From Eledone cirrhosa (Eukaryota), in contig OZ024741.1 in the NCBI GenBank assembly GCA_964016885.1, forward strand, positions 369,892,001-369,956,000: a stretch of DNA of 64,000 nt. The letters are read 5' to 3'. The position numbers and the translations under genes are program-made. Below the pieces are notes generated by a model that was not told the origin of the DNA, ran no database searches, and was given only the letters and a program-made list of their open reading frames with translations. Positions 1 through 12,030 of this stretch are shown in pieces; the first letter of the stretch is position 1, and each line of letters begins with the position of its first letter.

Positions 1-691
1 TTTTTCATAGTTACTTCCCTTTAAAGGATTTGTCTATTTATGGCTAAATTCGAGATTTTCTGTCCTGGAGAAACACTCTATGCCCTGGAAAAAACTGTAT
101 TTTCTAAAAACAGAAATACCCATCTTTGTTTATATAACAGGGTAAATGCGTTGGGGCGCAAAACCCAACAAAACTTAAGTACCTGTATACATCACTGTTG
201 TCAGTAATTATACTTAACTCGTCCTATGGATTGAGTGTTCTTACCCTTGGGTTGTACTACAGTATACATATACATATATAATATATATATAAACACACAC
301 ATATATATTGATATATATATAAACGTTTGGAGTTAGAAGGCCAAAACAATGCAGGTGTGGATATAGAATATAAATACAAATGCAAAAGATATTGCTGACA
401 ATTAGTCTTTTACCTTAAATTTATTTGAATATCCTTAATTTTCGAGATAATATCTCTTCTTCGGAGGGAAGTAAAGGGGTTAATCCAGTGTTCTAATTAG
501 CTTGCTAAGTCATGCTGACAGGAAATAGTATAAAAATTCCATTCTATTTCTATGTCAAAGAGTGAAGGTTAGGTGGATAAAGGGTTGTCTCCCTTTAAAA
601 GGATTTGGATATGTATGTCTAAGTGTGTGTGGGAGAATAAAGCGATGAAATGCCTATGATGGTTGGAAGATCACTGATGAAGGACAAACTT

Positions 692-769
<78 letters not shown>

Positions 770-1763: not shown

Positions 1764-2059
1764 ATTTGTAGTTTTTCCAAATTGAAGGATGAGTATTTTA
1801 AACTTTATTTTATCATGAGCTAAGGCTCTATTTCCCTGGATTTCACTAAATTATGTGTGATGAATCTATATCCTGATTCTTTTTGAATTGAGTTTGAATT
1901 ATTTTTCCCGCATCTTACATTAACTATTTTCCCATTTTGACGTTATAGTCACTTATATATTATGAAATACTGTGTGCTTCTTGCTCATAATAATTTCTAT
2001 ACTTTTCATTTATATATATATATATATATATGGTATACATATATATATATATATATGGT

Positions 2060-2146
<87 letters not shown>

Positions 2147-2379
2147 TTAGAAACACACAGGTACATGCGGCCACACACATATATACATGAATGCATCCGC
2201 ACCCAACTGTGAGTTAAGGGTGCCAACTTCACCGATGTTGCTCAATGAATAACCGGGACAGACCAATTCAGTTGAACCAGACTGAACCAGTATCAGAGTT
2301 AAAAATACATTATGAAGAGAGAAGAAACATTTAGATATAATTAGTAATAAAATGTATCATACCTAAACTGCTCCTAAAT

Positions 2380-2469
2380 TCCTCGACTACGTAGTTTCGT
2401 GGCATAAACAAAAACAATATATCATAAAGATATAGAGTCCCTGCGAGGTCTGCCGACTTATCAAGAGGA
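2380..2469 (-). ncRNA. hammerhead ribozyme, U3:A8 core variant (unit 1)
   Basis: minus strand TCCTC-TTGATAA-GTcGGCA..(46 nt)..TGCCAC-GAAA-CTACGTAG-TC-GAGGA; predicted GUC cleavage between 2385 and 2384. Confidence 0.8.
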
Positions 2470-2974
2470 TACCTCATTTTACTAGTCTCAAGAACGCGTC
2501 TACACGACGTGAGAAAGAATCCCAAAAGGCGGAGGGGGAGATAGTCACGCGATATAACGGTCGAGAAACAGAGCTAAGCCTCTTATAACCACGAAGAAAA
2601 TACCACAGAGGCGGAGGGGGTATTCATATCGAGGCCGCAGAAGAGGTGGTGAAGAAGGCTAGAAGTATGAGTAATGGAAGCTTTCCAGTTGTCCCCACAC
2701 CTCAAAGATTGCTCGACCAGAGGGAGTTATTAACAATATATTTAGAAACACACAGGTACATGCGGACACACACATATATACATGAATGCATCCGCACCCA
2801 ACTGTGAGTTAAGGGTGCCAACTTCACCGATGTTGCTCAATGAATAACCGGGACAGACCAATTCAGTTGAACCAGACTGAACCAGTATCAGAGTTAAAAA
2901 TACATTAAGAAGAGAGAAGAAACATTTAGATATAATTAGTAATAAAATGTATCATACCTAAACTGCTCCTAAAT

Positions 2975-3064
2975 TCCTCGACTACGTAGTTTCGTGGCAT
3001 AAATAAAAACAATATATCATAAAGAAATAGAGTCCCTGCGAGGTCTGCCGACTTATCAAGAGCA
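2975..3064 (-). ncRNA. hammerhead ribozyme, U3:A8 variant (unit 2, one stem I mismatch)
   Basis: as unit 1, but the 5' strand of stem I reads TGCTC. Confidence 0.75.
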
Positions 3065-3569
3065 TACCTCATTTTACTAGTCTCAAGAACGCGTCTACAC
3101 GACGTGAGAAAGAATCCCAAAAGGCGGAGGGGGAGATAGTCACGCGATATAACGGTCGAGAAACAGAGCTAAGCCTCTTATAACCACGAAGAAAATACCA
3201 CAGAGGCGGAGGGGGTATTCATATCGAGGCCGCAGAAGAGGTGGTGAAGAAGGCTAGAAGTATGAGTAATGGAAGCTTTCCAGTTGTCCCCACACCTCAA
3301 AGATTGCTCGACCAGAGGGAGTTATTAACAATATATTTAGAAACACACAGGTACATGCGGACACACACATATATACATGAATGCATCCGCACCCAACTGT
3401 GAGTTAAGGGTGCCAACTTCACCGATGTTGCTCAATGAATAACCGGGACAGACCAATTCAGTTGAACCAGACTGAACCAGTATCAGAGTTAAAAATACAT
3501 TATGAAGAGAGAAGAAACATTTAGATATAATTAGTAATAAAATGTATCATACCTAAACTGCTCCTAAAT

Positions 3570-3659
3570 TCCTCGACTACGTAGTTTCGTGGCATAAACA
3601 AAAGCAATATATCATAAAGATATAGAGTCCCTGCGAGGTCTGCCGACTTATCAAGAGGA
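3570..3659 (-). ncRNA. hammerhead ribozyme, U3:A8 variant (unit 3)
   Basis: core and stems identical to unit 1. Confidence 0.8.
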
Positions 3660-4151
3660 CACCTCATTTTACTAGTCTCAAGAACGCGTCTACACGGCGT
3701 GAGAAAGAATCCCAAAAGGCGGAGGGGGAGATAGTCACGCGATATAACGGTCGAGAAACAGAGCTAAGCCTCTTATAACCACGAAGAAAATACCACAGAG
3801 GCGGAGGGGGTATTCATATCGAGGCCGCAGAAGAGGTGGTGAAGAAGGCTAGAAGTATGAGTAATGGAAGCTTTCCAGTTGTCCCCACACCTCAAAGATT
3901 GCTCGACCAGAGGGAGTTATTAACAATATATTTAGAAACACACAGGTACATGCGGACACACACATATATACATGAATGCATCCGCACCCAACTGTGAGTT
4001 AAGGGTGCCAACTTCACCGATGTTGCTCAATGAATAACCGGGACAGACCAATTCAGTTGAACCAGACTGAACCAGTATCAGAGTTAAAAATACAAATATT
4101 ATATCTAAATGTTTCTTCTCTCTTCATAATGTATTTTTAACTCTGATACTG

Positions 4152-4294
4152 AACCTTTAATATTCTACCATACTATTTCATTCTAATACCATTATACATT
4201 TTAAAGGATTGTAAATAAAACGAGTAAATCAGACAAAGCTGGAATTCCTTTTATTAATATAATCTTCTATACACAATCATACACACCCGTGTAT
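4152..4294 (+). mobile_element. 3' tail of PLE-like family A
   Basis: near-identical to 12388-12530 and to the reverse complement of 63657-63795; ends catacacacccgtg then TA-rich sequence. Confidence 0.8.
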
Positions 4295-4371
4295 ATTTTA
4301 TCTATCTATATATATATATACAAATATATGCATATATAGATACATATATATATACATACATATGTAGAAGT

Positions 4372-4715
4372 TATATTTAATTTGTTGGGATACAACAAGC
4401 AAATATTTGTATAACTGATATAAAGCACTCAACAAATTTTTGGAGTAAAAATACAATCAATATATTAACAAATGGAAACTATATTTATAAAACCATATTT
4501 CATTATACATATTTCCTAGGACACCAAACCAATCCAGGAGCTTCCAACCGACATGGTCGCATTCTTTAAGGGTATGTCAATATTTTTTTATAAAACTGAT
4601 CTGTATTATATATTATCTGATGAAAGCGCACCATAATTTGCTTTGGTGTCCTTGAAATATGTATAATGAAATAAATATGGTTTTATAAATATAGTTTCCA
4701 TTTGTTAATATATTG
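4372..4715 (+). mobile_element. PLE-like family C fold-back fragment with hammerhead
   Basis: inverted arms ~4458-4528 and ~4642-4715; related copies at 33655-33832 and 39884-40104. Confidence 0.7.
4613..4669 (+). ncRNA. type I hammerhead ribozyme
   Basis: TTAT-CTGATGA-AAGcGCACCA..TGGTGTcCTT-GAAA-TATGTA-TA-ATGA. Confidence 0.7.
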
Positions 4716-4719
4716 TATA

Positions 4720-4805
4720 CATACATATATATATATAGACATATATATATATATATATAAGTATGCATATATATGTATCTATATATGTATATGTATATTT
4801 ATATA

Positions 4806-5716: not shown

Positions 5717-6529
5717 ACGTCTGTATGTGTGTACTTTAGTGTGTGCAATTGTGTATGTGTATATGCATGTGTATGTGTATGTGTATGTGTGTGTGGATGT
5801 GTATATATATGTGTGTGTGTCTATGTCTGTATGTGTGTGTATGTATGTATGTGTCTGCGTATGTTTATACGTATGTGTATGTATATGGATACGTCTGTGT
5901 TTGTGTATGTGTGTGTATGTGTATGTTTGTGTATGTGTGCATGTGTACATCTGTATGTGTGTGTGTGTTATATATTGTTGTTATTGCCATTAGTTTTATT
6001 TCGGATGTGATTAAATATCTCTTCCTTCCTTCCTGTCTGTATAAACACACACATACACACACATATACACACACATATATACACACATACACACATAGAC
6101 ACACATACACACACACATACATACACACATACACACATACACACACATACACACACAGATACACACACATAGATACACACATACACACACATACATACAC
6201 ACATACACACATAGACACACATACACACACAGATACACACACATACATACACACATACACACACATAGACACACATACACACACATATACACACACATAC
6301 ATACACACATACACACACATATACACATACACACACATATACACACACATACATACACACATACACACACATATACACACACATACATACACACATACAC
6401 ACACATATACACACATACATACACACATACACACGCATAGACACACATACACACACATACATACACACATAGATACACACACATACACACATACACACAC
6501 ACATACACACACATATATATACATATGTA

Positions 6530-7167: not shown

Positions 7168-9215
7168 ATGTTGTTGTTGTTGTGTTATGTGGCAGTGGTG
7201 GCGGTGGTAGTTGTGGTGGTGGTGGTGGTGGTGGTGATTCTGCTGGCGTTGGTTGTAATTGTGTCGGCGGTGGTGTTGGTGGACGTGTTGATGGTAGTGT
7301 TGAGGGTTATTGTGTTGGCGGTGGTGCTGGTTGTGGTGTTGGTGTGGTGCTGGTGTGGTGTTGGTGGTTATTATGTTTGCGGTGGTGTTGGTGGTTATTG
7401 TGTTGGCGGTGGTGTTGGTGGTTATCGTGTCGGCGGTAGTGCTGGTTGTGGTGTTGGTGTGGTGTTGGTGGTTATTGTGTTGGCGGTGGCGCTGGTTGTG
7501 GTGTTGGTGTGGTGTTGGTGGTTATTGTGTTGGCGGTGGTGCTGGTTGTGGTGTTGGTGTGGTGTTGGTGGTTATTGTGTTGGCGGTGGTGTTGGTGTGG
7601 TGTTGGTGTGGTGTTGGTGGTTATTGTGTTGGCGGTGGTGTTGGTGGTTGTGGTGTTGGTGTGGTGTTGGTGGTTATCGTGTCGGCGCTAGTGCTGGTTG
7701 TGGTGTTGTTGTGGTGTTGGTGGTTATTGTGTTGGCGGTGGTGCTGGTTGTGGTGTTGGTGTGGTGTTGGTGGTTATTGTGTTGGCGGTGGTGCTGGTTG
7801 TGGTGTTGGTGTGGTGTTGGTGGTTATTGTGTTGGCGGTGGTGCTGGTTGTGGTGTTGGTGTGGTGTTGGTGGTTATTGTGTTGGCGGTGGTGCTGGTTG
7901 TGGTGTTGGTGTGGTGTTGGTGGTTATTGTGTTGGCGGTGGTGCTGGTTGTGGTGTTGGTGTGGTGTTGGTGGTTATTGTGTTGGCGGTGGCGCTGGTTG
8001 TGGTGTTGGTGTGGTGTTGGTGGTTATTGTGTTGGCGGTGGTGCTGGTTGTGGTGTTGGTGTGGTGTTGGTGGTTATTGTGTTGGCGGTGGTGTTGGTGT
8101 GGTGTTGGTGTGGTGTTGGTGGTTATTATGTTGGCGGTGGTGTTGGTGGTTGTGGTGTTGGTGTGGTGTTGGTGGTTATCGTGTCGGCGCTAGTGCAGGT
8201 TGTGGTGTTGTTGTGGTGTTGGTGGTTATTGTGTTGGCGGTGGTGCTGGTTGTGGTGTTGGTGTGGTGTTGGTGGTTATTGTGTTGGCGGTGGTGCTGGT
8301 TGTGGTGTTGGTGTGGTGTTGGTGGTTATTGTGTTGGCGGTGGTGCTGGTTGTGGTGTTGGTGTGGTGTTGGTGGTTATTGTGTTGGCGGTGGTGCTGGT
8401 TGTGGTGTTGGTGTGGTGTTGGTGGTTATTGTGTTGGCGGTGGTGCTGGTTATTGTGTTGGCGGTGGTGCTGGTTGTGGTGTTGGTGTGGTGTTGGTGGT
8501 TATTGTGTTGGCGGTTATCTTGTCAGTGGTATTGCTGGTTGTGGTGTTGGCGGCGGTGTTGGAGGTTATCATGTCGGCGATATTGCTGGTGTTGGTGATG
8601 GTGTTGGTAGTGACATTGGTGGTGACGTTATTGCCTGTGGTGTTGGCGCTAGTGCTGGTGGTGTTTGTTTTGACGCTGGTGTTCTTTGTAGCTGATAGTG
8701 ACTGTGTCAGCGGCAATAGTGTTGGTGGTGGTGTTGTTAGCTGTGGTGGGGGTGTCGGCGGCGACAATAGTGTTGGTGGTGTTGGTGGTATTGATGGTAT
8801 TGATGGTATTGGTGGTATTGGTGGTATAGTGTTGGCGGTGGTGTTGTTAGCTGTGGTGGGGTGTCGGCGGAGACAATAGCGTTGGTGGTGTTGGTGATTG
8901 TCTGTGGTGGAGTTGATTTTGGAGTTGGCGCTGTTATAGTTGGTGGTGATGATTGTGATTATTTCGGTGGTGGTGTCGGTGCTGACATGTCGGCACTGAT
9001 ATAGTTGGTGGTGATTGTGGTGTTGATTGTGGTAGTTGAAGGAAATTGTGTTGGTGTCGGTGTTGGTTTTGGTGTTGGTGTCGGTGTTGGTGTTGGTGTT
9101 GGTGTTGGCTGCTGTGTTGGTGTTGGTATTGGTGTTGGTGTTGGTGTTGGTGTTGGTGTTGGCTGCTGTGTTGGTGTTGGTGTTGGTGTTGGTGTTGGTG
9201 TTGGCTGCTGTGTTG
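7168..9215. repeat. GGT/GTT-rich low-complexity region with 50-bp minisatellite
   Basis: tggttattgt recurs at 7721, 7771, 7821, 7871, 7921 (period 50); variant blocks recur about 502 bp apart. Confidence 0.9.
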
Positions 9216-11212: not shown

Positions 11213-12030
11213 CTATCTTTCAGATAAAATGCTTAAATAGTCTTGAATATTAATTCTGCCATGAAGGGAAACCATTGGGCCGGCGGATTTCCAAGATATA
11301 GCACCCCAGATCATCACAGATCCTCCTCCATGTTTAACAGTTGGAAGAAGGCAGTCTGGGTCAAATGCTTCTTTTGGCTGTCTCCACACGTATACTCGGC
11401 CGGTGGTGGAAAATAAGGTAAAGGATGACTCGTCCGAGAAAATAACATTCTTCCACTGCTCTAGGGACCAGTTCTGTAGGTTTTTACTCCACTCTAAACG
11501 CTTTGCAACGTTTGTTTTTGAAAGTAGTGGTTTTCTGATTGAAGCCCTCCCGTGAAATCCGGCGAACAGTTTTTGTGGAAACTGGGTTCTTGAGGTGGTC
11601 ATTAAGCTCTGCAGTAATTTTGGGAGCTGTACTTTTGTGATCCTTTCTAACAATTCGCGTAAGAGTCCGACGGTCCCTATCTGAAAGTTTTGGCTTTCTT
11701 CCGGAGTTTTGTTTCTCAAAGGCTGTCATTACTTTCGAGACAGTATTTCTTGATACACCAAACATTTCGGCTGTTTTCGTTACGCTAGCGCCTGCCATAC
11801 GAGCACCAACAATTTGACCTCTCTGAAAGTCTGATAGATCTGTCATTTTAATGAATTTTAATTACCTTTTTCTGATGATATCTGAAAAGAAACAGCAATT
11901 TTAACAAAACATATTAAGCAACACTAATAATAAATCAAAAAACATAAAAATGAACAAGCTTTTCACGGGTTTATAGATATTTCAAAATTATGATGCTATG
12001 ATGCTAGGTGTTTCCATTATTTTGTCCAAC

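Follow-up and report, generated by a model that had tools for sequence, protein, structure and literature searches.

The locus considered here raises the question of whether a short motif on the minus strand of Eledone cirrhosa DNA is a hammerhead ribozyme and, if so, what kind of element carries it and in which form it would cut. In the window, by which we mean the whole 64,000-nucleotide stretch analysed, a type I hammerhead can be read from the sequence at 2469-2380, and again 595 and 1,190 bases further on (2975..3064 and 3570..3659). On the minus strand its order is UCCUC, UUGAUAA, a 59-nt helix II, GAAA (2398-2395), the perfect palindrome ACUACGUAGU of helix III (2395-2386), C17 and GAGGA, with three helices enclosing the core. 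Helix I is open and consists of 5 bp (UCCUC/GAGGA), its 5' strand at 2465..2469 pairing with 2384-2380; the core strand U3-U4-G5-A6-U7-A8-A9 occupies 2458..2464, G10.1-C11.1 closes helix II, and A15.1-U16.1 is also present. The core consensus N3-UGA-N-N8-A ... GAAA ... UH is complete, with a Watson-Crick 3:8 pair, and when it is laid on the sequence, the cut triplet is GUC and cleavage is predicted between C17 (2385) and G1.1 (2384). Copy 1 equals the commonest genomic form, whereas in copy 2 one helix I pair is broken and helix II has two mismatches, and in copy 3 the middle segment of helix II has a single mismatch. The original prediction that the motif is a hammerhead was borne out by conservation of the core and stems and by a 21-nt core pattern that matches exactly at 6,021 places in the 3.0-Gb genome, whereas the reversed control matches nowhere.

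Rfam assigned no hammerhead family to the motif, either at the gathering score or up to an E-value of 10, which is expected for a variant core and a helix II of 59 nt; the microRNA-type matches that Rfam did return were rejected as low-complexity noise. Relative to shuffled sequences, the monomer folds were unremarkable (z-scores from -0.6 to +0.95). A 48-codon frame running through the hammerhead was dropped from consideration, since it is interrupted in the 591-bp and C subfamilies by indels of 1 and 2 nt. The hammerhead of this repeat is probably active.

As had been noted, all three window copies have UUGAUAA as their core strand (2464-2458 in copy 1), and the view of U3:A8 as a compensatory pair was supported. 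Searches with the standard CUGANGA pattern do miss this hammerhead, as anticipated, and so does Rfam; because this family escapes both, retrozyme counts obtained in these ways are underestimates, and in this genome more than 6,000 copies are invisible to them. Among 147 distinct copies gathered by homology alone, U3 is present in 146 and A8 in 145, and none shows the C3/G8 combination that the original prediction had named as contrary evidence. In the genome, positions 3, 7 and 8 are unchanged in 6,021 of the 6,055 core matches, and freeing them adds only 34. A pattern search for a C3:G8 or short-helix-II form of this hammerhead gave no match, and two later candidates for such a form proved to be internal deletions of the same retrozyme family. 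Furthermore, where another base precedes the 3' core, all of the loci read (30 of 48) are members of this family.

However, the double change had also been taken as a sign of selection for activity and, by implication, as novel, and neither claim was supported. Coding Neptune elements in the same genome share U3:A8; the pair therefore probably descends from a Neptune terminal repeat and is no evidence of selection in this repeat, and the case for selection rests instead on the conservation of core and stems across subfamilies. Both U3:A8 and palindromic dimers have been published for Penelope hammerheads (PMC4209133). Natural U3:A8 covariation is described in section 8 of PMC3088659, where such ribozymes are reported to be active in vitro, and PMC4209133 reports that about 1,300 Schistosoma hammerheads of Penelope elements have the U3-A8 variant (for a review, see PMC6765202).

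Helix II (2399..2457) was predicted to be a branched stem of about 60 nt enclosing two hairpins, CCU/AGG and an apical UAUAUC/GAUAUA. The size (59 nt) and the apical hairpin (94% of cells paired) are right, but the CCU/AGG hairpin is not, and alignment and folding both indicate an unbranched helix. Its base has 6 bp with a bulged C (2457-2451/2404-2399) and is followed by an internal loop, the middle part has 8 bp (2444-2437/2415-2408) followed by a 2x2 loop, and the apex has 6 bp (2434-2429/2423-2418) closed by a 5-nt loop. The branched form was rejected on pair probabilities, energy and alignment alike: the CCU/AGG pairs have a probability of 0.00 in all three window copies, branching costs 9 kcal/mol in copy 1 (-13.9 against -22.9 kcal/mol for the linear fold), and in an alignment of 22 copies, picked by hand for diversity, the CCU/AGG hairpin is only 50% paired, one of its three pairs being broken in 18 of the 22 copies and another in 15. 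In copy 1 these bases pair instead with a U-tract (probability 0.95-1.0). In the linear model of the hammerhead, 94.5% of 613 cells are paired, compared with 34-57% for slid partners. The changes within its pairs are mostly from A-U to G-U; one apical helix II pair goes U-A / U-G / C-G, as does one helix I pair, across subfamilies and with a true double change. Covariation was not above the control, since two pairs changed on both sides and 12 on one side, and 434 of 500 shuffles reached the same; the support for the linear fold is therefore thermodynamic, together with compatible changes. RNAalifold gave no active fold; it placed the ACCUC of the first internal loop opposite the core strand, which would be a third candidate partner for this segment. 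In other hammerhead families of this genome, helix II has 30-36 nt and the core has C3:G8, according to a descriptor scan run without a shuffle control.

Stem III (2386..2395) is, as had been seen, a perfect 10-nt palindrome. Its description as loop-less is correct for the dimer only; in the monomer, helix III has 3 bp and a 4-nt loop, with a probability of 0.08-0.30. The expectation that it favours a dimer was supported by the energies (+1.5 kcal/mol for the hairpin and -12.9 kcal/mol for the duplex), which describe an unstable hairpin in the monomer and a 10-bp duplex in the dimer, and by co-folds. Two copies of the first motif, co-folded without constraints, formed exactly the double hammerhead, at -61.7 kcal/mol compared with 2 x -22.9 kcal/mol, and the double hammerhead was favoured in five of the eight isolated pairs tested; the active fold was missed in the other three, namely window copies 2 and 3, one subfamily B copy and one subfamily C copy. 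Adjacent units could plausibly form the dimer, although folding of an 805-nt two-unit transcript yields paired palindromes (P about 0.96) and no helix I (P at most 0.01). The models thus favour a dimer at helix III, and helix I would need help that is invisible to a pseudoknot-free model. None of the eight inner positions of the palindrome is polymorphic among the 147 copies.

Two short elements may bear on helix I. The (U)GAGGU tail that precedes it (2471..2476) is conserved, as are the three bases before this tail, and the ACCUC of the helix II internal loop (2445..2449) is invariant. The tail, read 2476-2471, could base-pair with either the helix I strand or ACCUC(R) (2449-2444), giving a blocking hairpin in the first case and a candidate pseudoknot in the second. 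In the fold of the circular monomer, GAGG is turned back onto the helix I strand. The candidate pairing with the loop comprises 5-6 bp, with 97% of cells paired and a duplex energy of -6.9 kcal/mol, and none of the 10 tail and loop positions is polymorphic, compared with 54 of 143 positions in flanks, loops and linkers (p 0.011); no pair has changed on both sides, and the sixth goes U-A / U-G. Such a pairing would cross helices I and II, like the pseudoknots described in section 7 of PMC3088659. It is possible, and we propose it tentatively, that helix II works as a switch: the tail would block helix I in the monomer or circle, while the ACCUC loop of the dimer would capture the tail, free helix I and dock helices I and II. 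Several points speak against it: tail and loop show no compensatory change, the conservation extends to the three bases preceding the tail, RNAalifold assigns ACCUC to the core strand, and the tail may instead serve as a splice donor or a protein site. If the switch is real, this would be a tertiary-stabilised, self-gated Penelope-type hammerhead, which would explain how retrozyme circles escape self-cutting, and constructs trimmed at helix I would lose the tail element. How animal retrozyme circles avoid self-cleavage is left open in PMC7229834, as is in PMC4209133 the reason why Penelope hammerheads cut so weakly in vitro; the motif offers a small testable answer to both, with the tail hairpin as the off state and the tail-loop pseudoknot as the on state. 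Neither this family nor a tail-loop switch in a Penelope-type hammerhead was found in the literature searched, which comprised the main texts of open papers; long-helix-II or pseudoknotted variants may be present in the supplements of PMC4209133 and PMC3088659.

The hammerhead lies in an array (2140..4094, minus strand) of three full 595-bp units (2140-2734, 2735-3329 and 3330-3924) and a 170-bp partial unit. A query of one unit gave at least 140 matches from the 40 candidates scored among 1,887, the full-length ones being 98-100% identical. Three subfamilies, A, B and C, were recognised, which are 16-24% apart outside the core and stems; the older subfamilies B and C were extracted by homology. 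Comparison of their majority letters gave differences at 1 of 43 positions within the core and stems and at 85 of 505 outside them for A and B (p 0.005), at 2 of 43 and 120 of 496 for A and C (p 0.001), and at 3 of 43 and 79 of 496 for B and C (p 0.08), a test somewhat biased toward conservation as B and C were first reached via motif patterns. Within the 147 copies, none of the 13 core positions is polymorphic at the 8% level, compared with 47 of 129 flank positions. The array has no open reading frame of at least 150 amino acids, and tblastn with six Penelope-type proteins gave no hit (best E-value 0.75). The repeat or parts of it are also present in four further contig sets from three organisms, sets that are not informative on expression. 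By its sequence, the repeat is a young, high-copy, non-coding retrozyme with Penelope-like insertion marks.

These marks are visible at the ends of the array. The window insertion stops at 2140, the second of two fixed 3' ends (end 1 is at 2305), and the 165-nt tail between them is at 2140..2304; beyond it lies a (TA)n microsatellite, the insertion target (2011..2139). On the 5' side of the array there is an inverted 54-bp piece of the unit (4098..4151, plus strand), which abuts, without a (TA)n spacer, the 3' terminal fragment of a Neptune-type Penelope-like element (4152..4366, plus strand; 88-91% identical to L097/L084). This junction occurs once in the genome, so that a mobile retrozyme-Neptune chimera was rejected; it may be the result of a template switch or a deletion. 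Insertion ends were sampled at 50 loci of subfamily A and near relatives. Of the 71 distinct ends, 30 are at unit position 166, 24 are at position 1, 14 are 5' truncations and 3 are others, and of the 54 fixed ends, 52 lie directly next to (TA)n. Insertions are inverted in 23 of the 37 cases with both ends in view; 20 of these 23 combine the two end types, the remaining three, including that of the window, have one atypical end, and in no case are both ends of the same type. Partial tandems, an inverted 5' copy, a one-sided tail and a (TA)n bias make up the Penelope-type pattern described in PMC8557442, and the two fixed 3' ends fit the two reverse transcriptase start sites mapped for an anole element (PMC11167929).

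The 5' ends and the variants shared between units bear on the template. At the predicted cut site, 25 matches to a 5'-end pattern were found, and inspection of 20 of them showed a junction in every case; about 9/16 of the junctions are within reach of the pattern, which is confined to subfamily A. A control site 14 nt upstream gave 14 junctions in the 30 of 48 loci read, that is, about 22. Hence no pile-up of 5' ends was seen at the cut site, the excess being at most about twofold over the control and involving less than 1% of copies. Cleaved linear RNA as the main template of reverse transcription was therefore rejected, whereas a circular or uncut template fits. In five of 13 multi-unit insertions (14 groups of at least two full units, minus one that repeats the window), all units share variants that are absent from the other sampled insertions. 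In an 8-unit array (L003-L010, G000:C4:81321752-81326642), two variants alternate and a third recurs after four units; the template was therefore longer than one unit, perhaps dimeric or tetrameric, or there was local duplication. As a side observation, units 2 and 3 of the window (2735-3924) have seven private changes, five of which, a broken helix I pair included, lie within the 92 nt of hammerhead and linker; this clustering was noted post hoc.

GIY-YIG matches, which bear on the possible source of the retrotransposition enzyme, are abundant in this genome (150 of 10,597 candidates were scored); long frames with reverse transcriptase, a CxxxxCxxC linker and GIY-YIG belong to Neptune-type elements, following the definition of the linker in PMC8557442. 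One such element, L081, whose family is not that of the Neptune fragment next to the window array (L084/L097), has a 938-aa open frame between two terminal repeats, both of which contain a U3:A8 minimal hammerhead with a 6-nt palindromic helix III (1452 and 6431, minus strand); another Neptune hammerhead of the same type is at L055:2205 (plus strand). The first end of L081 lies about 80 nt past the cut site, that of the retrozyme 80 nt, and the terminal words are alike, the features common to the two being the U3:A8 core, this spacing and the short terminal words only. The unit has no DNA match to 30 GIY-YIG loci (a neighbouring copy aside) or to 20 longer Neptune loci, and no coding element with this hammerhead or unit was found among the 150 scored candidates.

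Several other elements were encountered on the way. In the window, 281-639 (minus strand) is a remnant of a Penelope/Poseidon-type terminal repeat, 83-87% identical to L091/L100, with a decayed minimal hammerhead; 1402-2010 is another repeat, 78% identical to L093:7041-7744, which ends in the (TA)n that is the target of the retrozyme and has hammerhead-like words of unclear order near 1690-1745. At about 4480-4720 and about 640-695 (both plus strand) there are decayed copies of two more C3:G8 hammerhead repeats, which resemble L015/L135 and failed the descriptor. Elsewhere, L068:6090-6710 (minus strand) is a distinct tandem repeat whose 310-bp units each contain a C3:G8 hammerhead, and a further hammerhead family (L071, L072, L086, L094, L095, L103 and L121), with a helix I of at least 8 bp, a helix II of 36 nt and an 8-nt palindrome, often adjoins retrozyme insertions. 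The window also contains weak Pfam matches, below the curated cut-off, to reverse transcriptase (31621-32472, minus strand) and to a Tc3 transposase domain (11213-11725, minus strand), and two minisatellites, 42 bp x 55 at 14426-16736 (98% match) and 50 bp x 25 at 7333-8604.

We consider it probable that this motif serves a non-LTR retrozyme as its type I hammerhead, which likely cuts the multi-unit transcript of the element at GUC as a palindrome-paired dimer. In such a cycle, the arrays would be transcribed, and two hammerheads would form a double hammerhead with a shared 10-bp helix III and swapped helix I strands, in which A8 would pair with U3 and yet still provide the 2'-OH general acid, the role of position 8 reported in PMC11300833. 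The freed 595-nt monomer would be closed into a circle, where the lone hammerhead would be off as a result of its weak helix III and the tail hairpin on helix I. A Neptune-clade RT/GIY-YIG protein would nick (TA)n on both strands, and the circle would be copied from two start sites, one per strand, to give tandem arrays with an inverted arm. Precedents for a retrozyme cycle are described in PMC4209133, PMC7229834 and bioRxiv 10.64898/2026.07.22.740005. As for the cleavage step, Penelope-type hammerheads are reported to cut weakly even as dimers (PMC4209133), eight of nine frog retrozyme dimers were uncut and one was active (bioRxiv 10.64898/2026.07.22.740005), and in vitro insertion did not depend on cutting (PMC11167929).

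These reports leave some room for a less likely version of the cycle, in which the same element and a Penelope enzyme are involved but the template is the uncut linear multi-unit transcript, the hammerhead being slow or protein-aided and kept as a folded signal for the enzyme. Hammerhead mutants of the anole element insert unchanged, and no RNA ends were seen there at the cut site (PMC11167929); in the present family, helix I is blocked in full-context folds, the alternating variants of the 8-unit array would suit a long template, and the lack of a 5'-end pile-up fits an uncut template as well as it fits a circle. However, no part of the motif varies less than its catalytic positions, a circle would more readily give rise to arrays that reach about eight units and share private variants (L080), and circles have been shown for other animal retrozymes (PMC7229834). 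Efficient cutting by the monomer, with the long helix II and the tail-loop pseudoknot offsetting the weak helix III, appears quite improbable to us. Helix III can reach 3 bp here, whereas dimer-dependent motifs typically have 1-2 bp (PMC4209133); rates rise by orders of magnitude when a pseudoknot links helices I and II (PMC3088659, section 7), and the tail and loop are both complementary and conserved; but helix III is seldom formed in the monomer folds described above, and all 10 palindrome positions are kept, including the four that would lie in the monomer loop, which fits selection for a duplex. Hardly any weight remains for a satellite that was spread by DNA recombination and contains a chance or dead hammerhead look-alike. 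The absence of an Rfam hammerhead and the unremarkable monomer z-scores would be natural for such a repeat, but its short arrays are dispersed over many contigs with fixed ends and inversions, and the full core consensus with 3:8 compensation is conserved across subfamilies; the conservation and the insertion-end data largely refute this reading.

The reading of a retrozyme hammerhead acting as a dimer can be compared with four groups of published systems. The Penelope-like hammerheads of PMC4209133 are alike in being type I, in G10.1-C11.1, in the U3-A8 variant, in a helix I of 4-5 bp (5 bp here) and in a palindromic helix III predicted to act as a dimer, which is the rule for Penelope elements; helix II contains a bulged base in Drosophila virilis Penelope, as it does here. 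Unlike the hammerheads described in that paper, the present one has no extra base between A9 and 10.1, a palindrome of 10 nt and a helix II of 59 nt with 20 bp in three segments (6-8 bp there), and it lies in a non-coding tandem unit rather than next to an open reading frame. Metazoan non-LTR retrozymes (PMC7229834, bioRxiv 10.64898/2026.07.22.740005) are likewise non-coding tandems with one type I hammerhead per unit, for which a circular intermediate and a Penelope origin have also been proposed; the hammerheads of axolotl retrozymes are dimer-dependent (PMC7229834), like the prediction made here, and the 595-bp unit is inside the reported range of 51-972 bp (bioRxiv 10.64898/2026.07.22.740005). 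As far as these reports describe, the published families were found with canonical or minimal descriptors, whereas the present one, known from DNA alone, combines U3:A8 with a long helix II. With the Neptune clade (PMC8557442) and the anole Poseidon element PAc (PMC11167929) the insertions share AT-rich or (TA)n targets, partial tandems, an inverted 5' copy, a one-sided tail and two fixed 3' ends read as reverse transcriptase start sites; they differ in having no open reading frame and a tail of 165 nt, compared with 30-40 nt in those elements and about 65 nt in L081, a Neptune family of the genome studied here. Finally, natural U3:A8 is found in Perreault et al. 2011 (PMC3088659), where a dimer with a 10-bp palindromic helix III is drawn for a mosquito repeat. 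The pseudoknots of that paper join the tips of helices I and II, whereas the pairing proposed here would involve an internal loop within a long helix II and shows no compensatory change; the statistics given there omitted repetitive type I motifs, and helix II in that set is usually short. Against this background, the long linear helix II, together with a possible gating pseudoknot, is what remains new in the present hammerhead.
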